A stretch of 39,258 nucleotides of DNA from an uncultured Deferribacteres bacterium (GCA_964014485.1 CAXHAT010000061.1:1-39258), one strand, 5' to 3'. Positions 11,639-32,345 are shown, counted from the first letter of the stretch. Numbers and translations are program-made. The notes: generated by a model from the letters alone, not told the origin.

Positions 11639-12055
11639 ATGCCGGAAAACATTCAATCGAAGGCAAGGCTTGGCTCGTTTGAAGATTTAATGAATGAAAT
11701 CGATGCTGATGCGGCTCCTGTTGTCGAACAGATTTCGCGACGGCTGAGGGAAGTCGTCTTGGCGGGCTTTCCCGAAGCGGTTGAAGTTGTGCGGCTTGGC
11801 GAAGGCGCTGCGTCTTATGGCATTGGCGAAAAAAAGATGAGCGAGGCGCACGTTTACATTTTGCCCTACAAGAAACATGTCAATCTTGGATTTTTTCACG
11901 GCGCCAATCTCGTCGACCCCGCAGGATTGCTCGAAGGAACTGGGAAAAAACTTCGGCACATCAAAATCCGCTCTCTTGAAGCGGCGGAAAATCCGGCTGT
12001 GAGTGATTTGATCGCCGCAGCACTGGCGGAACGGCGGACGGTTTTGGGGAAGTGA
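11639..12055 (+). CDS. DUF1801 (YdhG-like) protein
   Basis: HVNLGFFHGANLVDPAGLLEGTGKKLRHIKI motif; AAGGAGG RBS. Confidence 0.88.
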   Translation: MPENIQSKARLGSFEDLMNEIDADAAPVVEQISRRLREVVLAGFPEAVEVVRLGEGAASYGIGEKKMSEAHVYILPYKKHVNLGFFHGANLVDPAGLLEGTGKKLRHIKIRSLEAAENPAVSDLIAAALAERRTVLGK

Positions 12056-12122
12056 GTCAAAATGCACCAAAACGGTCGTCTGCCAATTCACAAATCATTA
12101 TTGCGATTGAGCTTATCCTGCA

Positions 12123-12719
12123 TTACGCCGCCTGCTCTAACTCCGCCCGAAAGAGAACGCCTTTCCCGCGGCGAAACGTATGTCCGGGAAGCGTAAAATC
12201 TTGGCTGAATTCAACGAACCCAAACGCTTTATGAAGTGCAATCGACCCTTTGTTGCGAACGTTTGTGTAATAGTAGACGGCGTCCGCCCTTTTGGCAATC
12301 CATGCAAGTCGCGCTTCACACAATCGGCGGCCAATTCCAAGCCGACGGTATTCCGGCGCTACAATCGATCCGGTCAAATACCACGCTTGCGGCATGCCGA
12401 CGCAACCGTCTATTTCTTTCGTTTTGAGAATCTCACACTTGCCATATCCCACGACTTTCCCGCCAGACGTTGCCGCAAATATTTGAAGTTCGGCGGGTTC
12501 GCGCTGACTGATAATCAGCTTTTGTTGAAGCTGAGGCAGTATTTCAGAAACCTGCCGGTCGCGTTGTACGGAAATGAGTTTTGCGATCCCGCCCAATTCG
12601 TCACTGGTTGCCTCCTCGATGACAATGGACTCGTTAGTCGGACGTGCCACGGCTACTTCATGAGACGTGATGAAATTCTCGTTCAGGGTCTTTTCGGAGC
12701 TTTCAATTTTTTCCAGCAA
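12123..12719 (-). CDS. GNAT family N-acetyltransferase
   Basis: IVAPEYRRLGIGRRL acetyl-CoA motif, NKGSIALHKAFGF; TTG start with GAGGA RBS. Confidence 0.88.
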   Translation of the reverse strand: MLEKIESSEKTLNENFITSHEVAVARPTNESIVIEEATSDELGGIAKLISVQRDRQVSEILPQLQQKLIISQREPAELQIFAATSGGKVVGYGKCEILKTKEIDGCVGMPQAWYLTGSIVAPEYRRLGIGRRLCEARLAWIAKRADAVYYYTNVRNKGSIALHKAFGFVEFSQDFTLPGHTFRRGKGVLFRAELEQAA

Positions 12720-12747
12720 GCAATTCCTCGCGCGATGATGTACTCAA

Positions 12748-12986
12748 TTTGTAAAGTCATTTGCTGTCGTATTCTACAAAAGCATTCGAGCACAAGCTTT
12801 TTGGCAAAACTTTTCAAAACGCAGAGACGGAAAGGACGCTGAGAAGTGCAGAGAAATCCTGGTTTTGAATTCAATGTTGCAGAAAGCTCAAGTACAAGAA
12901 CCCAAAAACATGTCTCTAAATTGTTGTTTTCAAAAAACTCCGCGAAACTCTCCGATCTTTGCGTCTCTGCGTTAAGCTACAAAGTT
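12748..12986. repeat. About 235-bp dispersed repeat, copy 2 (inverted relative to 8215-8444)
   Basis: Same evidence as copy 1; ends conserved, centre divergent. Confidence 0.85.
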
Positions 12987-13094
12987 GGGTCAACCGATTG
13001 TTCTAATCACATCTCCGGCTTACAACATAATGATTTGTTTCGAAAGACTTAGTTCCTGCTCCATCCTGCAATCTCGTCTAAAAAACCTCCTTTC

Positions 13095-14771
13095 TTAAAA
13101 CCCCTTCGCCTTCCCTTTCCCGCGCGGATCAGCGCCGCCGGTAAATCGAATTGGTTTTCCGTTTCCATCATATTCAATCGCCAAACCATGCGCGTTCCCC
13201 AAGCCTCTGACGGTGCGGATTTTATGCCCCATCGCTTCCAGTTCGCCTCGAATCGCTTCGAAAATCTTCTCTTCCACTGCGATTTGATCAGGCTCAATAA
13301 AACTGATGCGCGGCGCAGCGATGGCTTGCTGAATATCCATTTCAAAGTCGATAAGATTCATCACCATTTGCGGCACGGTCTGACCGATGGTGTGGCCGCC
13401 GGGCGTGCCAATCGCAACCCAGGGCTTGCCGTCGCGGAGAATGATGGTCGGGCAGTCGCCGGAAAGCTTGCGGCGACCGGCGTGAGCATCCATCGGATTG
13501 CCTTTTGGTTCATATGTGCAATAAGCCAGCGAATTATTGAGCCAAATTCCCGTGCCTTCCGGCATGATACGGCTGCCGAATGAATTGCCCAAAGTCTGCG
13601 TTGCGGAAACAATATTGCCCCACTGATCGGCAGCGACAAAATGCGTCGTATGCTGCATTTCGGCGTTGGAGAACTGCGTCGGCGGCACGAACGGCTTGGC
13701 TTGCTCGGCATTAATTTGCTCAGTCTTTTCTTGCCAATATTCTTCGGAAAGCAGCATGTCCAGCGGCGGCGGATTGAAATCCGGATCGCCTGCATAGCGC
13801 AAACGGCTCCAGAAAGCGTGCTTGGTGACTTCGGCAAAATGATGCAGGTAGGCGGTTGAGTTGTGGCCGAAAGATTGAACGTCGAAGCGGCTCATCAAGC
13901 CCAGCCGAACCAACGACGGAAATGCTGTGGACGGCGGAGACGCTGTGATCACCTCGCAGCCGCGATAATCGATGCTGATCGGCTGCCACCACTCGCCCTT
14001 GCTGTCTTGCAAATCCTGCAAGGCCAGAAAACCCTCGGCTTCCCGCATGGCCGCATCGATTTTCTGCGCCAATTCGCCGGTTTGGATAACCGATGCACCT
14101 TCTTCAGCAATGAGGCGAAAAGAAGCCGCCAGGTCTTTTTGCACCAGCAGATCGCCCGCTTCTAACGGTTCGCCGTCTCTGCCGTAAAACGTCTTCGCGT
14201 GCTCGGGAAATTCGGGGAAGGCGCGCTCAATGAGAAAGGCGTTGCGTTCGTCCAGTTCAAATCCATTCTCAGCCAATTCAATCGCACTGCCAAACAGTTT
14301 TTCCCAAGGCAGTGACCCAAAACGCTCGGACATTGCATCCCAGGCTGGCACGTTGCCCGGGGTAGAAACCGCCTTTGCGCCGCGACGATTTTCTTCATAA
14401 TTTGGCGTTGGTTCGCGCATCAAATCGGAGTTGGTCGCCTGCGGGATTTTGGCGCTGCTGTTGAGAAAACGTGTTTCTCCGGCTTCGGCGTCGTAGACCA
14501 AAATCGTCCCATAGCCGCCAACGCCCGACATCATCGGCTCGACGACATTGAGCGCCGCCGCAATCGCAATCGCCGCATCGAAGGCGTTGCCGCCCTGTCG
14601 GAGAATCTCCAGCCCGGCTTCCGTCGCCAGCGGATGCGCCGAGCTGACCATGCCTTTCGCGCCGACCGCTGGTGCTAACTGCGCATCGGATGATTCAGGA
14701 TTTGATTGCTGCTGGCAGGCGGTCAGCCAGAAACATAAAAGAGGAATGATTGCGGTGAGTTTGCGAGTCAT
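13095..14771 (-). CDS. ggt: Gamma-glutamyltransferase family lipoprotein
   Basis: GGNAFDAAIA, VVEPMMSGVGG, autocatalytic HTTHF, NSFGS, GTPGG, GGADPR; lipobox LTAC after MTRK start. Confidence 0.93.
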   Translation of the reverse strand: MTRKLTAIIPLLCFWLTACQQQSNPESSDAQLAPAVGAKGMVSSAHPLATEAGLEILRQGGNAFDAAIAIAAALNVVEPMMSGVGGYGTILVYDAEAGETRFLNSSAKIPQATNSDLMREPTPNYEENRRGAKAVSTPGNVPAWDAMSERFGSLPWEKLFGSAIELAENGFELDERNAFLIERAFPEFPEHAKTFYGRDGEPLEAGDLLVQKDLAASFRLIAEEGASVIQTGELAQKIDAAMREAEGFLALQDLQDSKGEWWQPISIDYRGCEVITASPPSTAFPSLVRLGLMSRFDVQSFGHNSTAYLHHFAEVTKHAFWSRLRYAGDPDFNPPPLDMLLSEEYWQEKTEQINAEQAKPFVPPTQFSNAEMQHTTHFVAADQWGNIVSATQTLGNSFGSRIMPEGTGIWLNNSLAYCTYEPKGNPMDAHAGRRKLSGDCPTIILRDGKPWVAIGTPGGHTIGQTVPQMVMNLIDFEMDIQQAIAAPRISFIEPDQIAVEEKIFEAIRGELEAMGHKIRTVRGLGNAHGLAIEYDGNGKPIRFTGGADPRGKGKAKGF

Positions 14772-14879
14772 TTTTTCCTTGGTCAATAATTTGATGCTGC
14801 ACGCTAATTTCTATGTTAGCCGCGTAATATCAGTTAATGAAATTTTACTCGGCAGTCCCGCGGTGCAACCGGTTTGTAA

Positions 14880-15013
14880 TACCATTTTCCTCGATTGCAC
14901 GTTCATTCCCTAACTGTCATTCTGAAAGAATCTTTGTTGTCCTACGCTCGCGATAACAAAGATTCTTTCAGAATGACAAGGCGGGAAAGGCTAAAAAATC
15001 AAGGAAATCGGTA
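14880..15013. mobile_element. 134-bp MITE-like element enclosing a perfect 24-bp palindrome
   Basis: Ends TACCATTTTCCTCGATT / AATCAAGGAAATCGGTA flanked by TAA on both sides; inner TGTCATTCTGAAAGAATCTTTGTT (14915-14938) and its exact reverse complement (14955-14978). Confidence 0.7.
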
Positions 15014-15079
15014 TAAGAGTAAGAGAAGGCGCGATATGATGAAGCCATTCTGAAGCTGATCGATGCTTTGTGATTCATT

Positions 15080-16018
15080 TTACTCTGCGGTAACCCAGTA
15101 TGCATCCACCATAAAATTACGCCCGCCATAACCGTCTCTCATATCGATGAGACGGGGAGAAATAAAATTCACGTGCGGCTTTGTATCCAGATTGCATCGC
15201 TCCAATCGTTGCAGAACGCCGTCTTTGACCTGCACGTTGAACGATTTTACGATTTCATCCTTTGCCTTGACGATCACTTTGTAGTCGCCGTCATTTTCAC
15301 AAAGCATCGATTTTGTAAAACTCGTTTCTCCAGCGCTTGTTTTTTGCTTGAAGGGCACGCGCAGGAATCGCCACTTACTTCCGCTGACCGATATCGACCT
15401 GCTGCTCAGCGCAACCTCCTTTCCATCGCGCATAATATAGACCGTGCAGCTTGCAGCATTGACGCCGTCAGGCAGTTCGCGATTGCAGCTCCACCAGTAA
15501 AAAAGCAGCGGTGAATCAGGCTTGTCGATATTGTCGCCCAGGAACCCCAGCGTATTCCAGGGGCCTTCGCGGGTGAAGTTTTTCCGAGGATTAAAAGGAT
15601 CTCCGCTGCTTTCAACTTTCATGCTGAAAGGCAGTGAAGTGACGGTTTTGCCGCCAACTTTGATGGACATGACGTATTCTCCCGGCTCTTCCACCCGAAC
15701 GCTCCCGGGATGACCGCTGGGTGCCCGCAACCCGGCAAAAGCGGGATATCCGTCCCATCGTTCTAACCGCATCGGAAGAATGACCACTGGACTACCGCCG
15801 GGCTTGGTGATCACAAACTCCACGGGCTGATCGTCAGCAGGAGGAAAGACAAGCTGAAGCTTATCAACCATGAACCCGCCGTTTTGATTGTAAAATCCTA
15901 TGCCCAACAGCGAAGCGTACTCAGCGGCAGGGGCGTAGTTTTGAGCCATAACTCCCTGGACGGAAATAAGCATCCATCCCAAGATCAACTTCACTTTCCA
16001 TTTTTTGAATTGTCTCAT
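15080..16018 (-). CDS. Secreted hypothetical protein (beta-rich, no recognisable family)
   Basis: 312-aa ORF, signal peptide-like N-terminus ending VMA-Q, GAGG RBS. Confidence 0.75.
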   Translation of the reverse strand: MRQFKKWKVKLILGWMLISVQGVMAQNYAPAAEYASLLGIGFYNQNGGFMVDKLQLVFPPADDQPVEFVITKPGGSPVVILPMRLERWDGYPAFAGLRAPSGHPGSVRVEEPGEYVMSIKVGGKTVTSLPFSMKVESSGDPFNPRKNFTREGPWNTLGFLGDNIDKPDSPLLFYWWSCNRELPDGVNAASCTVYIMRDGKEVALSSRSISVSGSKWRFLRVPFKQKTSAGETSFTKSMLCENDGDYKVIVKAKDEIVKSFNVQVKDGVLQRLERCNLDTKPHVNFISPRLIDMRDGYGGRNFMVDAYWVTAE

Positions 16019-16344
16019 GGATTAATTTCCTCAGACGCGTATTGATTTGATTCCCGAATCGTGGCAATATTTGTTTTGGAGATTAATTGTATGATGCTGC
16101 CGGAGCGGCGGAATGTCAATCGAAAATGATCAAGCAGTTTTCGCAGATCTCAAAAAACGATCAGGCTGTCGCGCTTGTGAAGTCATTTTTGCCTTTTCAG
16201 TAACGCTTTGAAGAAGGAGAGCGGCAAGGCGGGGCTTTGTGGTTCGAAGAATTCCCGGAGAAGACACGATTTCTTTAGAAAGCAAGCCCGTTTGCACAAT
16301 TGGAATCGATGGTATTTCACAAATCGGCGTAACTCTATGAGTTT

Positions 16345-18699
16345 TCAGTACCTCCTCTCATAAATTTCATCCAACGTCAAGCCCTTTAAATGCTCCACGA
16401 ATTCCGCCAGGTTTTTGATCGACACTGCCCACATTTGTCTACCCTTTTCGGCGGAAGCTTTGGTAGGGTCTCCCATCACGCCGCTATTCGAGATTTTTGC
16501 TGTTCGCGCATACCAGTCGACGCTGCGCTTTGAGCTGAAGTTCAAATAACGGTTTGAATAATGCGGCACGAGCTTTTTGGCTTTCTCCATGCGCACCAGG
16601 CCTGGCCTGATCGCCAGGGATGTGCTTGTTTCGATCTCGCCGGCATGTACGTCACTCGCTGTCTCAGCCATCGCTTCGATATCCGCATCGCTCGTCTCGC
16701 CAGAGTCCACACAGGTGAAAATATGCGCGTCGCGGTTGATCATCTGGGCCGCAAACTGTAAGGTCGCTGCATTGCCGCCATGCCCGTTGATGATAACGAG
16801 TTTTGTTATACCGTTGCGTGCAGCGCTCATACCGACCTCATAAACAATACGCGCCATTGTCTCGTTTGTGACGCTAATCGTGCCGGGAAAATCGTCGTGA
16901 TGATACGAAACGCCATACGGAATTAACGGCAAAACCAGCGGCTTTGGGTTACTGCAAGCTAACGCAACCTGCTTCGCCAGAAAGTCCGCATCAAAAGCAT
17001 CCGTATCCAACGGGAGATGCGGTCCGTGCTGTTCGATTGCGCCGACCGGCAACAGAGCTATATCGACTTCTTTGAATCGCTCCTTCGCCTGCGGCCATGT
17101 CAATTCGCCAAGCAGGTAATTATTCCTTTTGCCATCGCGGCCGGATTCTCCCGCAGAAAATTCGAGTTGGGTTTCATCTCCGGAAACAAGCTGTTCAGGC
17201 CGGTATAAAATGGGGTCACCGATGATCTCGAAATCGACCCACTTGCGTCCGATCCGTTTGACGGCGCCGTCAGCGTTAGCGTAAAGCTTCCAATACAGTT
17301 TTTGCCGCAAATCCATCGGGATGATTTCGACTGGCGACTTGTCCGGATCGATACGCAACTTCATGATTTCGGGACGCGCTTTCGGTTTCTTCGATGGCGC
17401 AGCTATCTTGCCCTTTTCTTGAAGCAGATAAAACAAATGCTCACTGCCGGCATGCTCCTGGTGAACGCTCTTTTGGGCCAGATCGACCATGCATCTCTGA
17501 ATTTGTTGCTCGGAATAGCCGCAATTTTTCGGATCAGCATCGAGTGCGACCAGCATACCAACGATGCGGCGGCATTTCTCACAGCGCCCGCAGGGATGCA
17601 CGTGCTCGTTTTCTTTGTGCCCCGAGTGGCAGGAAATCTGGTGTTGTTGCAAATCCGGATAGCGCTCAACAAGCATTTTCTCGATCAGCAATTCTGAAAG
17701 CGGACGCAGCAGTGAGAATTGTATGACGCCCCACTCCTTTTCATTATAATACCGCGTCAACGCGCTGTCGAAGTATCGGCTCTGATCGAACAGCCCGTTG
17801 TAATGCGTGATGCCGTGAAAAGACATCCGTACGGTCGTATCGAATTCATCGCCGATCACGATTCGTCCGATGCCGCGTTTGCGCACCAACGGCAAAACTC
17901 CGAAAAGAAAAACGCCGACAGTCCACAAGCGGATGGGATATTCATCCGCGCGAATGTCGGCAAAGTCCGGGCGTACAAACGGCAAGTGCCGCAGCATCCA
18001 TGAGAATACGCGATCGGAGTTCGTCCAAACACGGCTTGTATTTGGTTCGTTTGCGGCAAAATAACGGTATGCGTTTAGCGCCGTAAACCAGTGCCTGCCC
18101 GACTCATTGACGAAAATCGCGTGTGTTTCGCACTTCAGCTCTTTGAGCAAGCCATAGCTCAAAAGGCTGTCCTTGCCGCCGCTGGAGAGTACAACATAAC
18201 GGTTGTCCTCGGTATACCAACCATAGAATGGTGCGGCGCTTTTTTCATCAGCGCTGCCGGTTTCGAATACCAATTTTGCGCGCAGATAATTTTTCTTTTT
18301 AACGGTGGGTAACGAGCGCGCGTCGCCGATAAGGTATGGATTCTCGTGCAAGAACTTGATAACATAGATTTCTCGCGCGGTATTTCTCGCCATTGCTTCG
18401 AGAAAGCGCTGGTCACTGCGGTCGAAAGCGCCTTTAAAAACGATTTCATCGCAGAACAGGCCGTAGTTCAGCGCCACCTGTGCGGCCATCATGCTGGCGA
18501 GATTTTGCGACGCCCAATCAGACGAGTCGAAAACGTCCTCTTCAAATTTGTAAACGAATTCAGTCGTCTCTTTCGCATCACCATTCACAACAGTGTATGG
18601 CGCCAAAACACGTCTTTTTTCGACGACAACCGGGCCAACTTCCAGCCGGTCGAATACGCGGAGAATGCGCAGGGGGTCTTGTTCTAATTTTGTTTTCAT
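16345..18699 (-). CDS. Fusion protein: N-terminal PP-loop adenylating domain (MurL/QueC-like) plus C-terminal creatininase-family amidohydrolase
   Basis: SSGGKDS PP-loop, FSLLRPLSEL, SCHS...HPCGRCEKC; C-terminal LPVGAIEQHGPHLPLDTD, GVSYHH, INGHGGN, HAGEIETS, GVMGDP. Confidence 0.85.
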   Translation of the reverse strand: MKTKLEQDPLRILRVFDRLEVGPVVVEKRRVLAPYTVVNGDAKETTEFVYKFEEDVFDSSDWASQNLASMMAAQVALNYGLFCDEIVFKGAFDRSDQRFLEAMARNTAREIYVIKFLHENPYLIGDARSLPTVKKKNYLRAKLVFETGSADEKSAAPFYGWYTEDNRYVVLSSGGKDSLLSYGLLKELKCETHAIFVNESGRHWFTALNAYRYFAANEPNTSRVWTNSDRVFSWMLRHLPFVRPDFADIRADEYPIRLWTVGVFLFGVLPLVRKRGIGRIVIGDEFDTTVRMSFHGITHYNGLFDQSRYFDSALTRYYNEKEWGVIQFSLLRPLSELLIEKMLVERYPDLQQHQISCHSGHKENEHVHPCGRCEKCRRIVGMLVALDADPKNCGYSEQQIQRCMVDLAQKSVHQEHAGSEHLFYLLQEKGKIAAPSKKPKARPEIMKLRIDPDKSPVEIIPMDLRQKLYWKLYANADGAVKRIGRKWVDFEIIGDPILYRPEQLVSGDETQLEFSAGESGRDGKRNNYLLGELTWPQAKERFKEVDIALLPVGAIEQHGPHLPLDTDAFDADFLAKQVALACSNPKPLVLPLIPYGVSYHHDDFPGTISVTNETMARIVYEVGMSAARNGITKLVIINGHGGNAATLQFAAQMINRDAHIFTCVDSGETSDADIEAMAETASDVHAGEIETSTSLAIRPGLVRMEKAKKLVPHYSNRYLNFSSKRSVDWYARTAKISNSGVMGDPTKASAEKGRQMWAVSIKNLAEFVEHLKGLTLDEIYERRY

Positions 18700-18813
18700 T
18701 ATTTTTCTCGTTGAGGATTCTCATTTACACCGTGTTTTAGTTCGGCGACGATAGTGCTAAAATGCCCGCTCCTCTCCCAGGATCACTCTCGATAGAGCGA
18801 GGTGTTATTGGAA

Positions 18814-19917
18814 TCATAAGCTCATATTATGAATGCTCTTGCGTGCTTTCAAAAACGGTTGCAGCGCTTCGACAATCTTATCCGCGCCATCGAATAGTAC
18901 ATCAACTAAGGGAACGCGAAACTGCTCGTAGATTTTCGCGCAGGCCCGGATGGTCTCAGCGCGGGTCATATCTTCGTGGTTGATTGTAATCGCCACAACC
19001 GGCTTTCCGGAGATCAGCTCCAAGGCCTGAATTTGGTGATCGAGCGGGTGCAACGTGTAGCCGGGAAAACCATCATATTCTTCTCGCGCCGGGGCATGCT
19101 GCAAAACGATCACATCCGGCCGTGCCGCTGCGATTGTTTCGTAGCCGCCTGGGTAGGCCGGATTGAGCAAACTGCCCTGGCCTTCGATCACTATGGCGTC
19201 CGGATTTTGCTCACTCCAGGCGCGCCACACGGCATGCTCGATTTCGCCCGACATAAAATCGCTGACAAGGGAATCCATCATAATAGAATAGCGCGCGCCT
19301 TGCAGCCATGCCGTCTGGCCGGTACCGACCATTTCCGCAGAATATCCCGCGGCATGCAGCGCATCGATGATAATCCATGCAGTCGTGCGTTTGCCGATGG
19401 CGGAGTCTGTGCCGAGAACGGCAATTTTGAGAGACTCGACCTCTTCGATTTTGCCGCTAAAGAAATGCAGTTCATTTCGCGGCGGGGTTTTGCGAATGTC
19501 ACGGATTTTGACTTGATGGGTTTTTGCCAGTTTTGAGATGGCTGCATCTTCGGAGAGAAAATCATGCAAACCTGAATCGATATGCAGACCTGCGTAAATT
19601 GCTTTCATCACATCACAGCGTGTTGTTATATCTATACGGCCACCGTCCGGCGCCAAGCCAATAACGAAATGTGTTGCTGAAAAGCCTTTTGTTTTGGCGT
19701 CAGCAATCGCTGCGGATAACCCGCCGAATACCGGGATACCATTTGGTTTTTTGTCCAATATCTCGCCCGCATCCGCACCGTCAAAACGCGAATCGATAAC
19801 CGACAGAACACGGTAGCGCTGCGTACGCCGGACGAGACCATGCGCTGTTTTGCCGTTCGTGGTGTTGAATGCCCCCTGGCAATAGACGATAGCATTGCCT
19901 TCCGAAAGTGGCTTCAT
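18814..19917 (-). CDS. DUF1611 family protein (DgcN-like N-acetyltransferase / P-loop fold)
   Basis: GKTAHGLVR, SGLHDFL, GTDSAIGKRTT, GTGQT, IEGQGSLLNPAY, RPDVIVLQHAP motifs; ATGA overlap with the upstream gene. Confidence 0.9.
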   Translation of the reverse strand: MKPLSEGNAIVYCQGAFNTTNGKTAHGLVRRTQRYRVLSVIDSRFDGADAGEILDKKPNGIPVFGGLSAAIADAKTKGFSATHFVIGLAPDGGRIDITTRCDVMKAIYAGLHIDSGLHDFLSEDAAISKLAKTHQVKIRDIRKTPPRNELHFFSGKIEEVESLKIAVLGTDSAIGKRTTAWIIIDALHAAGYSAEMVGTGQTAWLQGARYSIMMDSLVSDFMSGEIEHAVWRAWSEQNPDAIVIEGQGSLLNPAYPGGYETIAAARPDVIVLQHAPAREEYDGFPGYTLHPLDHQIQALELISGKPVVAITINHEDMTRAETIRACAKIYEQFRVPLVDVLFDGADKIVEALQPFLKARKSIHNMSL

Positions 19918-20993
19918 GAATTTCTCCCTGTGAGTATAGCGATATACCTGTCGCTCGGTAGAGATTGTTTTTGATGTTGTTGCATTAAGGCGACCAGTCC
20001 GGCAGTCGAAGCCGGTAAGACGCTCAGGCCTTCGTGAATGCGAATCTGCTTTGCAGTCGTGAGCATACTTTTGTCACTGGCGTTTGCCGCCCACCCTTCG
20101 GTTTCGTGAATGGCTGCCAACGCAAAATCGCCATCGATGGAGCGCCAATTAATAAGCGGCTCGTTAACCGTAGTTTCGCGGATGCGGGATGGTAAAAGGT
20201 CATCACAAGTCGACAAATTTTTCAGCCAAGCCTGGATGATCGGATTTTTTCTGTAGGATGAACCCGCGATGATTTTCGGCATGCGGGAGGTTTTGCCGCG
20301 GCGGTACAAGCTGAGAAAGCCTTTGTAAATTCCGGCCAGGGTTGTGCCGTTCGAAACCGGCACGGCTACCATCGCCGGCGCATCTCGAAGCTCGTCGTAA
20401 ATTTCATAAGCGATCTCGCCATAAGCCTTGAGCTGCAATACAGTATTTGCGCCGCCAGGATTGGCGTCATAAAACTCACTTTTTTCTGCCGTCTCGCGGG
20501 ATTTCTTGACGGCATTTTCATAATCTCCCGGAACACGCATAATCTCAGCGCCAAGTCGTTGTATCTCGTTGAGGCGCCCGGTATGGTACTGCTCGGGGAT
20601 AAAAACCACACACCGCAAACCCGCAAGCGAAGCCGCTAATGACATCGCTGCGCCATAATTTCCGCAAGTTGCGATGGTTACTGTGTCGAAGCCGCGCCGC
20701 AGCGCGTCCATTGCCTGGGCGAAGGCGATGCGGTCTTTTTGCGTGCCGGTCGGGTTGCCGCCGTCGAACTTCAGGTAAACCTGCCGCAAGCCAATCTCCC
20801 GCTCGATATTGCGTGCACGTGAAAGTAAGGTGTCACCGACCTCCGAATCTATAATATCTTCATACGCCTCCAGCCGTTCTTCAACCGGCAGCGAAGTATC
20901 AGCAGCAATTTTTTTCTGAACCTGCAAATGATCGCTAATTTTTTCGTCCGCAGGCGAAGCGTCGTCTAAAAGTTTCAAGCTTGTGTTTTCCAT
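19914..20993 (-). CDS. Fold-type II PLP-dependent enzyme, threonine-synthase-like
   Basis: LKFDGGNPTGTQKDR (PLP lysine), ATCGNYG, VPVSNGTTLAG, EGLSVLPASTAG, ILTG. Differs from canonical thrC motifs (SFKDR, ASTGNT). Confidence 0.88.
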   Translation of the reverse strand: MENTSLKLLDDASPADEKISDHLQVQKKIAADTSLPVEERLEAYEDIIDSEVGDTLLSRARNIEREIGLRQVYLKFDGGNPTGTQKDRIAFAQAMDALRRGFDTVTIATCGNYGAAMSLAASLAGLRCVVFIPEQYHTGRLNEIQRLGAEIMRVPGDYENAVKKSRETAEKSEFYDANPGGANTVLQLKAYGEIAYEIYDELRDAPAMVAVPVSNGTTLAGIYKGFLSLYRRGKTSRMPKIIAGSSYRKNPIIQAWLKNLSTCDDLLPSRIRETTVNEPLINWRSIDGDFALAAIHETEGWAANASDKSMLTTAKQIRIHEGLSVLPASTAGLVALMQQHQKQSLPSDRYIAILTGRNS

Positions 20994-21104: not shown

Positions 21105-21303
21105 AAAAAACCACAGGCGTGCAGCCAGTGGCCGGGAGCTGGGGGGACTCCAGGGCAGGGGATGGAACTACACGCCTGTGGATATTTGGTAAAAATTACG
21201 TGTGGCCATAGACGGCATTAGCCAATCTATGTTGAGGGTAATGGAGCGTTTCCGGTCACACGTAATTTATATGGAGCTCTTACCCGCGACCACAGGCAAG
21301 AAC
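21105..21303 (-). ncRNA. Candidate structured RNA / 3' UTR element with three hairpins ending in a U-tract
   Basis: Stems 21276-21303 (12 bp with 4 G-U pairs on minus strand), 21193-21207/21254-21268 and 21111-21126/21166-21181, followed by T6; C-rich loops. Confidence 0.45.
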
Positions 21304-21319
21304 TGATGAGAAGGAATGC

Positions 21320-21691
21320 TTATTCTTCGTCAACTACTTTGTAACTTGTGATATTGATGGATTTGGTGCCAAATTCATCTTCGGTTACCTCGCCGGTCGC
21401 TTCAACAGTCTGGTCAACGAGACTCAGCAGCTCGCGGCCTTTGTCGTTGTCTTCAACAAGATATTCCTCAGTGACAACCACCGGCTCTTCTTCTTCTTCG
21501 GGTTCCACCTCGATGCTGACAATGATCGCAACGCTTGTCACATTATCATCATCATCCCAAGCTGAAGCAGCAACAACGCCTTCGATGGTGACTTCATCGG
21601 CTTTCGTATTTTTTTCGAATGAGTGAGCCAGGGCTGCGAGGTAGATCAGCGCAAAAAGGCCGATCACCAGGGTCAAGAGTTTTTTGTACAT
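21320..21691 (-). CDS. Small, very acidic exported or membrane-anchored protein, probable OB-fold
   Basis: Start moved to MYKKLLTLVIGLF (GAAAGGA RBS); VTIEGVV..WDDDDNV..EEYLVEDNDKGRELL..VEATGEV pattern. Confidence 0.7.
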   Translation of the reverse strand: MYKKLLTLVIGLFALIYLAALAHSFEKNTKADEVTIEGVVAASAWDDDDNVTSVAIIVSIEVEPEEEEEPVVVTEEYLVEDNDKGRELLSLVDQTVEATGEVTEDEFGTKSINITSYKVVDEE

Positions 21692-21802
21692 TTTTAGTCC
21701 TTTCAAAAAAAGTTTAGCTCAATTTTATTAGTTACGAAATGATCTCTCGCCAGCCTATACTGGCAAAAAGCCTCTATAAAAACTGTTGCAGGTCAGGTGA
21801 TT

Positions 21803-23748
<1,946 letters not shown>

Positions 23749-23770
23749 TTTTGCTTCCTTTATGTTGTGG

Positions 23771-23896
23771 TTATCCAATGTAGTAGCCCGAAAAGTAACT
23801 GTTCAACCAGTCTTCAACAGACCATCTCACTATTTCGTGCTTCTTGATGAGAACTCTCAACTCTTGCTGAATCAGATCAATATCCAACGTTGCCAT
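23771..23896 (-). CDS. Possible 41-aa small protein immediately upstream of groES
   Basis: [41 protein letters not shown]; lies between the sigma54 promoter and groES; the nearest GAGGAG is unusually far (21 nt) from the ATG. Confidence 0.35.
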
Positions 23897-23945: not shown

Positions 23946-23962
23946 ATCAAAGCGTGTGCCAA
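23946..23962 (-). promoter_or_regulatory. Sigma54 (-24/-12) promoter candidate for groES-groEL
   Basis: TTGGCACACGCTTTGAT = TGGCAC-N5-TTGA (consensus TGGCAC-N5-TTGC, one mismatch at -12). Confidence 0.65.
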
Positions 23963-24204: not shown

Positions 24205-25566
24205 CTATTTCTTATCGAGCCCGTACTCTTTGAGCTTGCGATAGAGCGTTGCCAAGCCGATTTGCAGAGTCTTGGCGGTTCTGTTCTTGTTGAATTTGTG
24301 ATATTGCAATGTCCGCTCAATTGCTGTTTTCTCAATTTGTTGCAAGGACATGCCGATTTCCAGGTTAAATTTTTGAGCTTGCCAGCTGTGTTCGACGTCC
24401 AGATTCGGAAAAAGTTGCGGTGGCAAAATTACATGCTGACTCAGGACAACGGCTCGTTCAATGGTGTTTTCAAGCTCACGAATATTTCCTTTCCACGGAT
24501 GGCTGCACATTTGCTTCAGGGCGACCGGATCTATGCCAAGCACGTGTTTTTCATTGAGCTGGTTGTACTTATCAATAAAGAATTGGGCCAAAAAAGGAAT
24601 ATCTTCCGGTCGTTCGCGAAGTGGCGGCATGGTAAGAGAAATGACATCTAGGCGGTAATATAGATCCTCCCGGAATTGCCGGTTCGCAACTCTTTGTTCG
24701 AGATTGGTGTTCGTGGCCGCAATGATTCGTACGTTCACTTTAAGCGTATCCGTGCCGCCGAGCCGCTCGAATTCCCTGTTCTGCAAAATGCGCAATATCT
24801 TGACCTGCGTGGAAAGCGGCATATCGCCGATTTCATCCAGAAAAACCGTGCCACCTTCAGCCAACTCTATTTTGCCCTTTTTGCGACCGGTCGCCCCGGT
24901 AAATGCACCCTTCTCATAACCAAAAAGCTCTGATTCAAACAGGGTTTCCGGAATTGCACCGCAGTTGACTTTAACAAAGGGTTTGGCGGCACGCTTGCTA
25001 TAATAGTGAATTGCCAAAGCTGCGAGCTCTTTGCCCGTTCCGCTTTCCCCTGTGATTAGCACAGTGCTTCGCGACGGGGCGATTTGTTTGATGAAGTCGA
25101 CAACCTTCTTGAATTTTTCACTTAAGCCGATTAACAGCGGCGCACCTGGCTCTGATTCCAGGATACGGCGTAACTGTTCGTTTTCCCTGCGCAACAAAAT
25201 TGTCTCTGCAGTCCTGTCAAGAAGCTGTTTGAGCTTTGCAATACGTATCGGCTTGATGATATAGTCGTACGCGCCCATTCGCAGCGCTTCGACTGCCGTC
25301 TCCACTGAACCGAAAGCAGCCATGACAAGTGTGAAGATCTCTGGCTTATTTTCCTGCAAATACCGCAAAATTTCCAGTCCGGTTCCGTCTTTCAGGTTGA
25401 GTTCGGTAACGACGATATCGATTCCTCGGGTATTTATGAGTTCAATGGCTTTGTTTCGGGACGAGGTAGTCAGAATCAGGTAATCACTACGCTTCAGGCC
25501 TTTTTGCAAGCCATCCAGTGAATCTTTGTGGGAGTCGATGAGAAGTACGGTTAGTTTGTCCATCAT
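24205..25566 (-). CDS. Sigma54-dependent NtrC/AtoC-family activator with degenerate receiver domain
   Basis: GESGTGKE, ESELFGYEKGAFTGA, FLDEIG, FREDLYYRL, WKGNIREL and Fis-type HTH; receiver reads LLIDS, IVVTE, VMAAF, IIKP. Confidence 0.95.
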   Translation of the reverse strand: MMDKLTVLLIDSHKDSLDGLQKGLKRSDYLILTTSSRNKAIELINTRGIDIVVTELNLKDGTGLEILRYLQENKPEIFTLVMAAFGSVETAVEALRMGAYDYIIKPIRIAKLKQLLDRTAETILLRRENEQLRRILESEPGAPLLIGLSEKFKKVVDFIKQIAPSRSTVLITGESGTGKELAALAIHYYSKRAAKPFVKVNCGAIPETLFESELFGYEKGAFTGATGRKKGKIELAEGGTVFLDEIGDMPLSTQVKILRILQNREFERLGGTDTLKVNVRIIAATNTNLEQRVANRQFREDLYYRLDVISLTMPPLRERPEDIPFLAQFFIDKYNQLNEKHVLGIDPVALKQMCSHPWKGNIRELENTIERAVVLSQHVILPPQLFPNLDVEHSWQAQKFNLEIGMSLQQIEKTAIERTLQYHKFNKNRTAKTLQIGLATLYRKLKEYGLDKK

Positions 25567-25627
25567 CAAAATATCTTATTTTGATTTTGCATTACATGTT
25601 TATGATAGCTCTACTTTTTGAGGATTT

Positions 25628-26966: not shown

Positions 26967-29375
26967 TTATTCACATTTTAAACTCTCCACTGGATTCACG
27001 CTCGCCGCGCGGACGGCTTGCCAGCCGACTGTAAAAACCGCAATCAACAATGCCGCGCCGCCTGCAAGCGCTAAAATCCACCAGCCGACGTCGGTGCGAT
27101 AGGCGAAGTTCTCCAGCCAATTGTTCATCGCGAACCAAGCAATCGGCCAAGCGAGGAGATTGGCGATGACGACCAGCCGAACAAAGTCCTTTGAAAGCAG
27201 CGCCGTGATTTTGATCGTGGTCGCGCCGAGCACTTTGCGCACGCCGATTTCCTTGATGCGCTGTTCCGCAGCGAACGCCGCCAGCCCAAACAGGCCGAGA
27301 CAGGCGATCAAAATGCTCAACATGGAAAAAACGCCGATTGCTTGCCCCCACGCTCGCTCCGTTTGATAAAGCCGGTCGAAATTTTCATCGAGAAAGAAGT
27401 ATTCGAATGGAACGTCCGGGAAGAATTGCGCCCATGTGTTTTCCAGCCCCGCGAGCGTCGCGTCGAAGTTTTCCGGGCGCAGTTTCAGGGAAATGTAAAA
27501 ATACCAGTACGGCTTGATCATAAAAATCATCGGTTCGATGCGCCGGTGCATCGACTCGAAATGAAAATCTTCCACCACGCCGACGATATGCCCGCGCCGC
27601 TGCTCAAATGGAAGCGACGGCGAGCCGGTGCGAAATTCCGTATCCATGATTTTTCCAAGCGGCGCTTCCCAGCCCAACTCGCGCACCAATGCTTGATTGA
27701 CGAGGTACGCTTCAGTAGAGTCCGTCGCGATGCGCTTGTCCAGCGTCCGACCCTGCAGGAGTTGAATGTCAAACGTTTGCATAAAATCCGGATCGGCGGA
27801 GACGGTGGAAACGCGCCAGGGTTCGTCGTCGTTTTGCAACAGCCCGCCCTCAGGCTTGGCCGTGACGCGAATGCTCAAATCATTCGACGGCACGTGCGAC
27901 GAAACCGTCGCCTGACGCACGCCGGGAATTTTGAGCATTTCATTTTTCAGGAGTTCAGGGTTGTCGCGAATTTTGCGCGCCTGAGGGATGACCAGAATTT
28001 GCTCTTTGTTAAACCCAAGCCGCTGATTTTGCACGAATTGCATCTGGTTGCGAATCACAATCGTCCCGGAAATCAGGACGATGGCGACGGCGAATTGCGT
28101 GACGACCAACGCTTGTCGGAAAAAAGATTTTTGCGTGCGCTGAGAGCCGCCTTTCAGCGCATGAGCCGGACGAAACGCGGAGAGAAAAAACGCCGGGTAG
28201 CCGCCGGACAAAACGCCGACGCTAAAAGTGAGTGCGACAATCCCGGAGAGCAGGAGGATGTCTTCGCCATACTCAAAAGTCAGCCGTGCTTGCACGAATC
28301 GACTAAAAATCGGCAGGAAAATTTCGACCAAAAACAGAGCGATTGTTGTCGCAATCGCGGCAATGAGTAACGATTCGCCAAGAAATTGTTTGATCAACTG
28401 CCCGCGCCCGGCCCCGGAAACTTTGCGCACGCCAATTTCCTTCGCGCGATTCAGCGAGCGCGCCGTAACCAGATTCATGTAGTTGATGCAGGCGACCACA
28501 AGAATCAAAAATGCGATGACTCCCGCGAGAACAATGTACGTCCGGTCGCTGTTTGGCGCGATTTCGCCGCTCAACTGCGAGCTTAAATGAATGTCGGTGA
28601 TCGGCTGCAGGCGAGCGAGAACGTCGGTGTAGTTCTCCCGCCTTTCTTCGCCTAAATGCCGGGCGACAAAGTCGGGGAATTGCGCTTCAAGCGTCGCGGG
28701 CGCGTTGTTTTCGGGCAGCAAAACGTACGTTTGCGCGAAAGTCGCCGACCAGTCTTGCAAGAAGAATTCCGGCCATGCGGTCTTGGTTGATTCAAAGGAG
28801 ACGAGCAAATCAAAAGTAAAGTGCGAGTTTGCCGGAACGTCTTCGAGAACGCCGGTGACGAGCAAATCGTAGTATTTTTCTCCCCACCGCAATTGTACCT
28901 GCTTGCCGACGCTCTCTTCTTGACCGAAATACTTCTCCGCCAGCGTTTTTGTGAGCACGACTGAGAACGGCTGCGTCAACGCTGTTTTCGGATTTCCGGC
29001 CAGCATTTTGAATGAAAAGATTTCCAGCGCTTCAGCGTCCGCCCAGAACATGCCGTTTTCGAAAAAGCTCTCCTCGCCGACGCGAATGAGCGCAGGCTGG
29101 CGATCTTTGCGAAAACGGACGGCCTGAACTTCCGGGAAATCGTTGTTCAACGTCGGGGCTAGACGGAAAGCCGTCGGTGCGGCGTTTTCCCGCACGACGC
29201 GATAGAGACGGTTGGCGTTTTCATGATACTCGTCGAAGCTCGTTTCGTGACGGATAAACAGAAACAGCAAAATGAAACACGCCATCCCAACGGCAAGCCC
29301 GCCGACGTTGATGAGTGAGAAAACGCGGTTTTTGAAGAGATTGCGAACGGCGATTTTCAGGTAGTTTTTAAACAT
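26967..29375 (-). CDS. ABC transporter permease, MacB/FtsX family (duplicated)
   Basis: MFKNYLKIAVRNL, ACINYMNL..RAKEIGVRKVSGA, IACLGLFGL..QRIKEIGVRKVLGA, NPVESLK. Confidence 0.96.
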   Translation of the reverse strand: MFKNYLKIAVRNLFKNRVFSLINVGGLAVGMACFILLFLFIRHETSFDEYHENANRLYRVVRENAAPTAFRLAPTLNNDFPEVQAVRFRKDRQPALIRVGEESFFENGMFWADAEALEIFSFKMLAGNPKTALTQPFSVVLTKTLAEKYFGQEESVGKQVQLRWGEKYYDLLVTGVLEDVPANSHFTFDLLVSFESTKTAWPEFFLQDWSATFAQTYVLLPENNAPATLEAQFPDFVARHLGEERRENYTDVLARLQPITDIHLSSQLSGEIAPNSDRTYIVLAGVIAFLILVVACINYMNLVTARSLNRAKEIGVRKVSGAGRGQLIKQFLGESLLIAAIATTIALFLVEIFLPIFSRFVQARLTFEYGEDILLLSGIVALTFSVGVLSGGYPAFFLSAFRPAHALKGGSQRTQKSFFRQALVVTQFAVAIVLISGTIVIRNQMQFVQNQRLGFNKEQILVIPQARKIRDNPELLKNEMLKIPGVRQATVSSHVPSNDLSIRVTAKPEGGLLQNDDEPWRVSTVSADPDFMQTFDIQLLQGRTLDKRIATDSTEAYLVNQALVRELGWEAPLGKIMDTEFRTGSPSLPFEQRRGHIVGVVEDFHFESMHRRIEPMIFMIKPYWYFYISLKLRPENFDATLAGLENTWAQFFPDVPFEYFFLDENFDRLYQTERAWGQAIGVFSMLSILIACLGLFGLAAFAAEQRIKEIGVRKVLGATTIKITALLSKDFVRLVVIANLLAWPIAWFAMNNWLENFAYRTDVGWWILALAGGAALLIAVFTVGWQAVRAASVNPVESLKCE

Positions 29376-29865: not shown

Positions 29866-30597
29866 ATGAAAACGATGTTTACGTTGAAAGTTAATGACAG
29901 TGAAGACGGCGTTTTAAAATTCGGTATGCCGGAAAACGACCGCGAGATGAAAGAAATGTTTGATTTTCGCTACCGGGTTTATTGCGAGCGCGGCTATGTT
30001 TCGCCGAGTCAATCCAAGAGCGACGTCGATGAATATGACCGCAACGGCTGCTGTCAGTACTTTATCGCGAAGATGGGCGACCAGATTATTGGCACGATGC
30101 GGCAGATTCAAAACAAGGCGCTGCCGATTTTCAATTATTTTAGTTTTCCCGATCCTGGCAAGGAATCAGGCGCGCCGCCTGCGAATAGCTGCGAAATCGG
30201 CAGGTTGATTGTGAGTCACAAAGGTGCGGGGTGTACGGGAGTGCTGCCGCGCGGGTTGGTCTCGCTGTTTTTGATGAAGTGCGCCGCCGAATATGCCAAA
30301 CAGAACGGGATAGGTTTGAGCTACGCTTTTATCAAAGCGAAATTGGAGCGCAAAATGAGAAACCGGAAAATGCCGCTCAAATATATTCGAAATTACGAGC
30401 AGTCCTGCTCGCCCGATGATCTTTTGTTTGATTACTTCTCCAATCCCAAAGACCCGGTGCATCCGGTCTATTTTTTAACCCATGAATTCGACCGTTACCT
30501 GAAGCGCATCATTAATCGCGTCTTCTTCGAAATCAAGAATGGAATCGAGTACAGAATTCGGCAAAACCTGATGACGAAAGTTCTGTTTGGGCGTTAG
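29866..30597 (+). CDS. GNAT-fold acyltransferase, N-acyl amino acid synthase (FeeM)/LuxI-like
   Basis: FRYRVYCERGY, DVDEYD, IIGTMR, CEIGRL motifs; GAGGA RBS. Confidence 0.7.
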   Translation: MKTMFTLKVNDSEDGVLKFGMPENDREMKEMFDFRYRVYCERGYVSPSQSKSDVDEYDRNGCCQYFIAKMGDQIIGTMRQIQNKALPIFNYFSFPDPGKESGAPPANSCEIGRLIVSHKGAGCTGVLPRGLVSLFLMKCAAEYAKQNGIGLSYAFIKAKLERKMRNRKMPLKYIRNYEQSCSPDDLLFDYFSNPKDPVHPVYFLTHEFDRYLKRIINRVFFEIKNGIEYRIRQNLMTKVLFGR

Positions 30598-31157: not shown

Positions 31158-32345
31158 TTATCGGATAGCGACAAGCTGTCGCTTAACAACCTTTTCATCG
31201 AGTTCGACGCCCAGTCCGGGCCCGGTCGGCGGCGTGATGAAGCCGTTCTCATACCGGATGGGATCCATTAAAATTTCACTGTGCAGATCGGTATAGTTGT
31301 ATTCCTGGATGAGGAAGTTAGGCGAGCATGTATTGAGCTGCAGCGCAGCGGCAAATGCGACGGGGCCGCAGTACATGTGAGGCGCAATCATGGCGTAGTG
31401 GGCTTCCGCGATCCCGGCGATCTTCTTCGATTCAAGAATGCCGCCGCACTGCCCCACGTCGAGTTGGATGATTTGGGCGGCTTGCTTTTTCAAAAGCTCG
31501 GTAAACTCAAACTTGGTGACCAAACGCTCGCCCGCCGCGATTGGGATATTTGTGTGGGCGGCCACGCGCGCCATCTCGTCCACGTTTTCCGGATGCACAG
31601 GCTCTTCAAAGAAATACGGGTCGTAGGGCTCAAGGATTTTCGCAAGGCGAATGGCGCCGGCCGTACTGAACTGACCATGACCGCCAAACCCGATCTCAAG
31701 CTTGTCGCCAACCGTGCGTCGAATGGCTTCGAAAATGCGGCCCACCTTGCGCATGGTCTCCAATGAATAGTCAAAAGGCCCTCCCACTTTGTACAATGGA
31801 TCCATCTTCGCGCAAGTAATCCCCTGCTCGACCAGCGCGACAGCTTGTTCACCGGCAACCTCCGGCTTGTCAATGGCTCCTGGCGGCTCGAAATACCCGT
31901 AGGCCCTTAACTGATCGTGGACGCGTCCTCCCAACAGATTGTACACAGGCTGCCCCGTGACTTTTCCGATGACGTCCCAGCAAGCCATTTCAATAGCGGA
32001 AATGGCTGGCATGGCGTAGAGCCCGGGGCGACGATGGTCATGCACGGAGGCGTACAGATTTTGCCAGAGATGTTCAATATTAAAGGGGTTTGTTCCAACG
32101 ACGTGACGCTCACATAATTCATGGATCAGACTGATTTGTGAGTCCAGCTTGGTCACGCCGCCGGTTGGACGTTCCCCCAATCCGATCACGCCCTGATCAG
32201 TCAACAGTTGGATGAACAACCACTTCGGCTGTCCGGCGTAAGGCGGAATGTTGTCAATCAACATTGTTTTTACCCCGGTCACTTTAATTTTCTGTCGGTT
32301 CAAAATCGGGGAATTACTGGTTGCTGCATTCGTGATTTTATTCAT
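31158..32345 (-). CDS. Mandelate racemase/muconate lactonizing enzyme family (enolase superfamily, acid-sugar dehydratase-like)
   Basis: AISAIEMACWDVIGK..PVYNLLGG, KMDP, GGHGQF, FEEP, AGER, APHMYCGP, LIQE, PTGPGLGVEL. Confidence 0.92.
   Translation of the reverse strand: MNKITNAATSNSPILNRQKIKVTGVKTMLIDNIPPYAGQPKWLFIQLLTDQGVIGLGERPTGGVTKLDSQISLIHELCERHVVGTNPFNIEHLWQNLYASVHDHRRPGLYAMPAISAIEMACWDVIGKVTGQPVYNLLGGRVHDQLRAYGYFEPPGAIDKPEVAGEQAVALVEQGITCAKMDPLYKVGGPFDYSLETMRKVGRIFEAIRRTVGDKLEIGFGGHGQFSTAGAIRLAKILEPYDPYFFEEPVHPENVDEMARVAAHTNIPIAAGERLVTKFEFTELLKKQAAQIIQLDVGQCGGILESKKIAGIAEAHYAMIAPHMYCGPVAFAAALQLNTCSPNFLIQEYNYTDLHSEILMDPIRYENGFITPPTGPGLGVELDEKVVKRQLVAIR

Follow-up and report, generated by a model that had tools for sequence, protein, structure and literature searches.

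A three-gene operon in an uncultured Deferribacteres bacterium is a reduced copy of a widespread, uncharacterised four-gene cassette with a predicted MurL-fold domain

Gene organisation of the locus

The DNA analysed here (hereafter the window, all 39,258 nucleotides (nt) of GCA_964014485.1 CAXHAT010000061.1:1-39258, from an uncultured Deferribacteres bacterium) carries three adjacent genes, which encode a pyridoxal phosphate (PLP) enzyme, a DUF1611/DgcN-like protein, and a fusion of a predicted MurL-fold PP-loop domain (N-domain) with a creatininase-family hydrolase domain. We found that these genes form one operon, a shortened version of an uncharacterised four-gene cassette that is widespread and horizontally scattered and whose fourth gene encodes an enolase-superfamily enzyme. 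An earlier note on this DNA had assigned the same domains and had proposed that the fusion could replace both an enolase-type racemase and a deacylase. The domain assignments of all three genes hold in profile and structure searches; the proposed replacement is unsupported. The features of the locus are as follows.

19914-20993, minus strand: gene 1 (P0001), PLP enzyme, 359 amino acids (aa); open reading frame (ORF) intact
20736-20738, minus strand: codon of Lys86 of gene 1, predicted PLP Schiff-base lysine (TQKDR), from alignment to ThrC structures
19914-19917, minus strand: ATGA stop/start overlap of genes 1 and 2, from ORF coordinates and sequence
18814-19917, minus strand: gene 2 (P0002), DUF1611/DgcN-like protein, 367 aa; ORF intact
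19384-19413, minus strand: P-loop-like GTDSAIGKRT, residues 169-178 of the DUF1611 protein, from a homolog alignment
16345-18699, minus strand: gene 3 (P0003), MurL-fold::creatininase fusion (MurL fold predicted), 784 aa; ORF intact
17170-18699, minus strand: predicted MurL-fold ATP-pyrophosphatase domain, residues 1-510 of the fusion, from AlphaFold2, hhalign, ESM Atlas and Foldseek
18166-18183, minus strand: PP-loop SGGKDS, residues 173-178 of the fusion, invariant in 20 full-length homologs
17572-17631, minus strand: Cys cluster SCH...PCGRCEKC, residues 357-376 of the fusion, predicted Zn site, from a homolog alignment
16396-17106, minus strand: creatininase-family metal-dependent amidohydrolase domain, residues 532-768 of the fusion (PF02633, 240.7 bits)
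21105-21181, minus strand: hairpin with U-tract, likely a terminator marking the upstream operon boundary, from RNA folding

All three genes lie on the minus strand, at exactly the coordinates given in the earlier note, which had also described the first two as coupled. Genes 1 and 2 overlap by 4 nt (minus strand ...aat tcA TGA agc...), the ATG of the ATGA at 19917-19914 opening gene 2 and its TGA closing gene 1, and 114 nt separate gene 2 from gene 3. Upstream, the hairpin (-39.1 kcal/mol, z = -5.69; none of 200 shuffles was equally good) is placed between a small ORF (21320-21706) and gene 1, and separates the operon from a block comprising a sigma-54 activator, groES, groEL and the small ORF. 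The catalytic motifs are intact, as had been claimed: the PP-loop, the Cys cluster, the hydrolase residues and the DUF1611 loop are invariant in homologs.

Conservation and composition of the cassette

A scan of a genome collection matched at least 600 stretches; among those listed, 553 encode a relative, and the best 80 loci were kept. They represent more than ten phyla (Calditrichota-, Gemmatimonadota-, Desulfobacterota-, Planctomycetota-, Acidobacteriota-, Bacteroidota-, Zixibacteria- and Latescibacterota-type metagenome-assembled genomes (MAGs), among others). The gene order recurs throughout these loci: PLP enzyme, DUF1611 protein, MurL-like::creatininase fusion, and then a dipeptide-epimerase-like enzyme of the enolase superfamily. 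By BLAST, 69 of the 80 loci have the PLP enzyme, 67 have DUF1611 and 66 have a gene of the enolase superfamily. Where the upstream side could be assessed, a PALP gene was present in 65 of 66 loci and DUF1611 in 61 of 66, confirming that the genes are conserved neighbours elsewhere.

A strict count was restricted to the 59 loci in which the fusion is flanked by 2400 nt or more on its upstream side and 1100 nt or more on its downstream side, and an epimerase was counted from 40% identity to the cassette epimerase; the other 21 were left out solely for short contigs. All four genes were found in 50 of the 59 loci, the PLP enzyme and the fusion alone in five, and the PLP enzyme, DUF1611 and the fusion in three, so that the architecture of the window is rare elsewhere; one locus had no match to the PLP enzyme. 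DUF1611 and the enolase gene occurred together in 50 loci and were both missing from five, while DUF1611 stood alone in three and the enolase gene in none. These counts show that the two genes are gained and lost together and that the PLP enzyme and the fusion are the constant core of the cassette.

The fusion has more than 100 full-length homologs with 61-72% identity. Within the phylum of the window it was found in 18 of 167 genomes (10 of 105 high-quality genomes). Ten loci were obtained from this phylum, eight of which have an epimerase ortholog (51-70% identity) directly downstream; among these eight, four split the fusion into two adjacent genes for N-domain and creatininase (L107, L108, L112, L115) and one has no creatininase match. 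The remaining two encode the N-domain with neither creatininase nor an adjacent epimerase ortholog. The creatininase part is missing in L113, L114 and L116. Since it can be split off or missing, the fusion is not obligatory.

The fourth gene and its loss in the window

The fourth gene of the cassette is closest to dipeptide epimerases. A representative (P0123, from locus L002) scored 232.1 bits against the model of the Thermotoga-type L-Ala-D/L-Glu epimerase and 161.3 bits against DgcA (NF042940), below the cut-off of 400. Its best solved relatives are 3jva (E = 2.2e-73), YkfB of B. subtilis (1jpm, E = 1.9e-70) and 3rit. In 52 cassette epimerases the KxK motif, the metal ligands, the second Lys and the DxD motif (D318, D320) are all invariant. 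D318 and D320 align with D321 and D323 of YkfB, the DxD motif that we take to bind the free N-terminal ammonium of the substrate. The position aligned with Arg24 of YkfB, which presumably binds the Glu side chain of the substrate, is Glu in 48 of the 52. If these assumed roles are right, the substrate would be dipeptide-like with a non-acidic C-terminal residue; glutamate in particular appears unlikely, with Glu rather than Arg at the predicted specificity position.

The operon in the window has no cassette-type epimerase after the fusion, and the earlier note was right that it lacks a DgcA-like gene. A decayed copy was considered and rejected: tblastn of 56 cassette epimerases against window positions 12000-16500 returned noise (best E = 0.012 over 27 aa), and the gene that occupies the slot (15080-16018) has neither a family match nor a homolog in the 80 loci. 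Nor does the sole enolase-superfamily gene in the window (31158-32345) qualify as the missing partner, being galactonate-dehydratase-like (292.9 bits, NF010624), sharing about 25% identity with cassette epimerases and having no relation to the cassette. A search of the genome of the window (97% complete, 465 contigs) likewise gave no ortholog of the fourth gene. The best match there, next to an S9 peptidase on another contig, has 34-37% identity; among themselves, cassette epimerases reach 45.5-99% identity (median 64%). Because the epimerase is usual in related loci, those of its own phylum included, the three-gene form in the window is a derived loss.

In two genomes with an enolase-less cassette, a paralogous DUF1611 gene (36-39% identity) adjoins a paralogous epimerase gene (37-40%) elsewhere (G472:C1:3758741-3760904 and G474:C2:433337-435471), an arrangement like that of DgcN and DgcA, so that the pair appears to be a free-standing two-gene module. 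One further genome encodes a 62%-identical epimerase on another contig.

These data bear directly on the proposed replacement. The gene immediately after the fusion is L-Ala-D/L-Glu-epimerase/DgcA-like in 50 of 59 loci (8 of 10 within the phylum itself), so the fusion as a rule coexists with this type of racemase and does not replace it. The mutual exclusion with dgcA that the earlier note had predicted is likewise contradicted, with coexistence in 85% of assessable loci.

Gene 1 is a threonine-synthase paralog

Gene 1 encodes a fold-type II PLP enzyme (PF00291 PALP, 181.8 bits). It passed the cut-off of NF004996 (PRK06381, named 'threonine synthase'; 431.4 bits, cut-off 266) and fell below that of TIGR00260 thrC (113.1 bits, or 113.4 in the genome search; cut-off 167.1). 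A canonical thrC is found on another contig of the same genome (locus C38, 239.7 bits). In alignments to four solved threonine synthases (E = 3e-27 to 1.6e-21), Lys86 corresponds to the K of SFKDR, and the ThrC loop STGNT reads TCGNY. A HMMER alignment to 1uim, gapped at this point, places Gln opposite Arg160 of T. thermophilus ThrC, a residue that we assume binds the phosphate of O-phosphohomoserine. The sequence comparisons suggest that gene 1 is a paralog of threonine synthase, belonging to a misnamed 'threonine synthase' subfamily. The PRK06381 match supplies a name only; the subfamily is not known to have a demonstrated activity.

Gene 2 is a DUF1611 protein related to DgcN

Gene 2, the sole DUF1611 gene of its genome, contains both DUF1611 domains, each above the gathering score (PF07755, 207.2 bits; PF17396, DUF1611_N, 74.7 bits). 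Against the DgcN model (NF041892) it scored 153.7 bits, short of the cut-off of 480. Its solved relatives are 2g0t, 2obn and 7xrj. In the P-loop-like segment, G169, T170, D171, S172, A173, G175, K176, R177 and T178 are invariant in 20 homologs.

A DUF1611 protein can itself be joined to the N-domain. One such fusion (P0249) has DgcN-like residues 73-352 followed by the N-domain at 377-854, and a second is a single ORF in L016. These proteins parallel the MurL::Mur-ligase fusions in the ESM Atlas, in which one protein combines a bond-forming enzyme with the epimerase of the new C-terminal residue.

The N-domain of the fusion belongs to the MurL superfamily

No Pfam model matched residues 1-510 of the fusion. 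The SGGKDS motif aligns with GGGKDS of MurL-like proteins. C357, C370, C373 and C376 are invariant and align both with SCN...C..C.KC of MurL-like proteins and with a weak match to QueC (PF06508, 13.9 bits over residues 352-377 only, cut-off 22 not reached). An AlphaFold2 model of the N-domain, built from a 30-sequence alignment, reached a predicted local distance difference test score of 89.4 and a predicted template modelling (TM) score of 0.90. The top solved structures retrieved by Foldseek were QatC (9y01_B, E = 3.9e-5), QueC (2pg3, 4.4e-5) and Cap9 (9nto_B, 7.5e-4), with E-values from 3.9e-5 to 2.3e-3 and identities of 13-18%; TM-scores by target were 0.68-0.74 against QueC and Cap9. The model thus suggests a core of the QueC-type PP-loop fold with a Zn ribbon.

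MurL was not among the Protein Data Bank matches of the N-domain in Foldseek, and MurL-like genes were therefore gathered from genomes of another phylum; a MurL search of the genome of the window and 14 control genomes found nothing. The comparison set came from 9 of 301 genomes, none of its members scoring above the 700-bit cut-off. The two best proteins (about 300 bits, full length) adjoin a Mur-ligase gene, like MurD2-MurL pairs. In hhalign, the N-domain profile matched seven MurL-like proteins with 98.3% probability (E = 2.6e-14, 303 columns), and with 99.5% probability when one intermediate sequence was added (E = 7.5e-23, 394 columns). A feature search of the ESM Atlas returned MurL-family clusters for 27 of its 30 nearest hits, and predicted structures gave TM-scores of 0.70-0.71 to MurL clusters from residue 6 to about 480-500, the aligned part being named MurL_N. 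Against the MurL model itself (NF041275), the whole protein scored 26.7 bits and its isolated N-domain 22.6, far from the cut-off of 700.

From these profiles and predicted structures, we assign the N-domain to the MurL superfamily, as a member that is no MurL ortholog. The hhalign and Atlas results show that the MurL-like call of the earlier note was right at the superfamily level, and that the affinity of the domain is to MurL and not to true QueC. Standalone homologs of the N-domain (460-520 aa) occur; a search among shorter proteins gave at least 120 matches, those listed being mostly contig-end fragments of the fusion.

The C-terminal domain is a creatininase-family hydrolase

The hydrolase domain exceeds the gathering score of PF02633, and all 20 homologs compared share its E556, H558, D567, H640 and E688, some of which would be the metal ligands. 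The best named match is the peptide-cleaving MftE (TIGR03964, 158.4 bits, cut-off 172), followed by creatininase (TIGR04448, 109.6 bits, cut-off 235) and IolN (80.7 bits, cut-off 245), all below cut-off. Solved creatininases matched at E = 2e-17 or weaker.

Neighbouring genes

The minus-strand block upstream of the operon comprises the sigma-54 activator (24205-25569), a groES-sized ORF (23464-23778), groEL (21803-23425) and the small ORF at 21320-21706, which is acidic and has a signal-like start. A -24/-12-like site (TGGCACACGCTTTGAT, 23946-23961, one mismatch) precedes the groES-sized ORF. Sigma-54 control of the operon was considered and rejected: sites with at most two mismatches were not enriched (15 found, 21 expected), and the strong terminator-like hairpin sits between the chaperone block and gene 1. 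Among the 80 loci, GroEL was found within 8 kb of the cassette in six, sigma-54 activators in seven, and homologs of the small ORF in four, in addition to L111. This last locus, from the phylum of the window, matches its upstream layout of sigma-54 activator, small-ORF homolog and then cassette. The chaperone/sigma-54 neighbourhood may reflect a stress-regulon link or inherited synteny.

De novo clustering of neighbours revealed no fifth gene in more than 11 of the 80 loci. Beside the GroEL and sigma-54 genes, the commonest extras are a YitT-family membrane protein (11 loci) and CorA (10 loci, named by its GMN motif alone). The YitT gene directly follows the fusion in four of the five two-gene loci. 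The YitT-family protein carries DUF2179 and follows the fusion in two-gene loci and the epimerase in four-gene loci (L064, L066, L074, L075 and L079; also L004, L015, L019, L048 and L072); it is possibly a transporter of the cassette product. Five further loci encode a DUF5698/DUF2179 protein. Genes of the magnesium-transporter type thus recur in the neighbourhood: the CorA-like gene (YGMNF motif) occurs in L003, L009, L023, L032, L046, L055, L056, L068, L073 and L080, and a CNNM/CorC-type gene lies near the cassette in L078.

Downstream of the operon, the slot of the fourth gene is occupied by the ORF at 15080-16018 (minus strand, 312 aa), which has a signal-peptide-like N-terminus, no Pfam, NCBIfam or PADLOC match, and no homolog among the 80 related loci. 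Further downstream, also on the minus strand, lie genes for a gamma-glutamyltranspeptidase (13095-14786; 427.3 bits) and, at 12123-12719, a GNAT acetyltransferase, found near the cassette in one and none of the 80 loci, respectively; neither is conserved with it. On the plus strand, a FeeM-like N-acyl amino acid synthase (29866-30597; PF21926, E = 3.6e-10) adjoins a MacB/FtsX-type permease (26967-29375), at a distance of about 9 kb from the operon.

Proposed function and alternatives

Our leading model, which we hold tentatively and rate at somewhat less than an even chance, is that the cassette acylates an amino acid, activates or inverts it at the expense of ATP, and then deacylates it. The DgcN-like DUF1611 protein would N-acylate the amino acid. 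The MurL-fold PP-loop domain, with ATP, would adenylate the free alpha-carboxylate of the N-acylated residue, as proposed for MurL; this adenylation would make C-alpha labile and drive inversion in one direction. The fused creatininase-type metallo-amidohydrolase would then strip the acyl group to free the inverted amino acid, which the ThrC-paralogous PLP enzyme would make or consume. In most genomes, the reversible enolase-type epimerase might act on the same or a neighbouring acyl or dipeptidyl intermediate. This step is absent in the window, so any inversion here must rest on the MurL-like domain alone. The residues of the cassette epimerases suggest that the amino acid is probably not acidic. 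The leading model would account for most features, among them a DgcN-like acyltransferase, a MurL-fold domain fused to a putative bond-former or to an amide hydrolase, and the parallel with the MurL::Mur-ligase fusions of the Atlas.

Several points weigh against this model. Should the MurL-like domain be an epimerase, one of the enolase type, as found in 50 of 59 loci, would seem superfluous, and this apparent redundancy favours another chemistry for one of the two enzymes. The conserved DxD of the cassette epimerases would suit an N-acetyl amino acid less well than a dipeptide. In five loci, no DUF1611 gene lies near the fusion and the PLP enzyme, so the hydrolase cannot strictly depend on DUF1611 acylation. 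The scores against the equivalog models of DgcN (153.7 against 480) and MurL (26.7 against 700) are far below cut-off, and the nearest solved folds (QatC, QueC and Cap9) are amide-forming ligases and no epimerases. Moreover, the functions of all cassette members are assigned from sequence and predicted structure.

The redundancy of two epimerases makes a protect-ligate-deprotect scheme a serious rival, albeit one that we consider unlikely on balance. DUF1611 would again N-acylate an amino acid; the PP-loop domain would be a ligase of the QueC/Cap9/QatC type, passing the adenylated carboxylate to ammonia or to a second amino acid; and the creatininase domain would deprotect the product, an amino-acid amide or a free dipeptide. 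In the four-gene versions, the dipeptide epimerase would then invert the C-terminal residue of the free dipeptide. Such a scheme gives each enzyme one non-redundant job, and it agrees with the amide-forming QueC-family enzymes being the top solved structural neighbours of the N-domain and with the operon epimerase retaining the DxD motif of its nearest solved relatives, the dipeptide epimerases 3jva and 1jpm. However, profile and structure comparisons put the N-domain closer to MurL than to QueC, no glutaminase or second gene supplying an amino acid is conserved in the cassette, and the window itself has no dipeptide epimerase. No defence model of the QatC/Cap9 type was matched either. A reading of the locus as a defence system was rejected on the same scan, in which six proteins gave matches to 0 PADLOC families.

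Catabolic salvage appears less probable still. Imported D-amino acids, or peptides with D-residues, from sediment necromass would be converted to L-amino acids by an irreversible racemisation of the DgcN-DgcA type with its own deacylase, and the PLP enzyme would degrade the product. The sequencing runs that contain this DNA are labelled marine metagenome, most related loci come from sediment-type MAGs, and DUF1611 and enolase pairs exist as a separate module. Two papers describe the DgcN-DgcA pathway as a catabolic one that many marine and sediment microbes possess (PMC12363236, PMC10845958). Against salvage, no uptake system for peptides or amino acids and no catabolic regulator is conserved near the cassette, where the recurrent neighbours are instead the YitT-family membrane protein, CorA, GroEL and sigma-54 activators; the expense of ATP would be costly in salvage, and the window has no DgcA-like partner.

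That the genes are unrelated housekeeping genes lying side by side (a real threonine synthase, as the PRK06381 model would name gene 1 (431.4 against 266), a stray DUF1611 protein and a creatinine or formamide hydrolase) is very improbable, given a linkage kept across more than ten phyla, the ATGA overlap, the domain fusions among the partners, the canonical thrC elsewhere in the genome, and the Gln at the position of ThrC Arg160, where the alignment is gapped and the role of Arg is an assumption of ours.

An extended form of the leading model, which we regard as doubtful, gives the MurL-fold domain a general role as an ATP-driven epimerase of the C-terminal residue in N-acyl amino acids or peptides, the first outside peptidoglycan synthesis. 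Together with its own deacylase and a DgcN-like acyltransferase, it would irreversibly yield a free D-amino acid (or turn D into L) by a route that uses no PLP racemase, has spread by gene transfer among sediment bacteria and archaea, and runs without the enolase-type epimerase in the three-gene form. To our knowledge, no other protein of the MurL fold has been characterised, and MurL itself is known solely from an alternative route of peptidoglycan synthesis. If the leading model holds, it would provide a new ATP-driven way of inverting amino acids and functions for four poorly understood families: a 'threonine synthase' subfamily, the DUF1611 proteins other than DgcN, a MurL-like family that has no model, and a creatininase subfamily. 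How D-amino acids turn over in marine sediments is still a question for ecology. The window amounts to a natural experiment, in which the cassette lost the enolase epimerase and keeps the other three genes intact, and so shows which steps can stand alone; it adds a natural three-gene variant, along with an explicit count of how often the fusion and the enolase epimerase coexist.

Relation to known systems

We found no paper on the cassette in the literature searched, which left most subscription journals outside its coverage. The creatininase family (creatininase, MftE, ArfB, IolN) shares with the hydrolase domain a full-length PF02633 match and invariant His, Asp and Glu positions; the domain differs in scoring below the cut-off of every equivalog and in its fusion to a MurL-like domain. 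Gene 1 and ThrC align overall and have the fold-type II PLP fold and lysine motif in common, whereas gene 1 has a sub-cut-off thrC score, coexists with a thrC elsewhere in its genome, and carries an altered STGNT loop and the Gln at the Arg160 position.

QueC, Cap9 and QatC are the best solved matches of the PP-loop core and Zn ribbon of the N-domain, and the chemistry of their family is carboxylate adenylation. In contrast to them, the N-domain carries additional subdomains at both ends (about 160 aa N-terminally and 120 aa C-terminally), and its identity to them is 13-18%.

The DgcN-DgcA pathway resembles most cassettes in pairing DUF1611 with an enolase-type enzyme like the L-Ala-D/L-Glu epimerases, and in needing an amide hydrolase to finish the route. 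The cassette differs in missing both equivalog cut-offs (153.7 against 480 and 161.3 against 400), in adding the ATP-dependent MurL-like domain and the PLP enzyme, and in having Glu in place of the expected Arg in the epimerase. The window departs further, with no DgcA-like partner in the operon and no ortholog found in the genome.

MurL offers the closest comparison for the N-domain. MurL has been described as an epimerase that depends on ATP and works in one direction; the proposal is that the N-acylated terminal Glu is adenylated at its alpha-carboxylate first and epimerised afterwards (PMC8788868). The two share their fold and domain order over about 425-470 residues (Atlas TM-scores of 0.70-0.71), homology at the profile level, and a set of motifs: the PP-loop GGKDS, an NE/DE motif, FS.L.PL and the SC...C..C.KC Cys cluster. 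Each is fused to, or lies beside, an enzyme that would make its N-acylated substrate. They differ in the score against the MurL model (26.7 against 700 bits), in the fusion of the N-domain to a creatininase-type hydrolase, and in the substrate, which is probably not Glu here. The MurD2/MurL pathway has an adjacent MurD-like ligase and no glutamate racemase; no Mur ligase domain was found in the 24 window ORFs scanned. MurI scored above cut-off in four of five tested cassette-bearing genomes other than that of the window, so the cassette is no substitute for MurI. Here a distant relative of MurL is found in a different cassette, one that is very widespread and that also contains components of the DgcN-DgcA D-amino-acid pathway.

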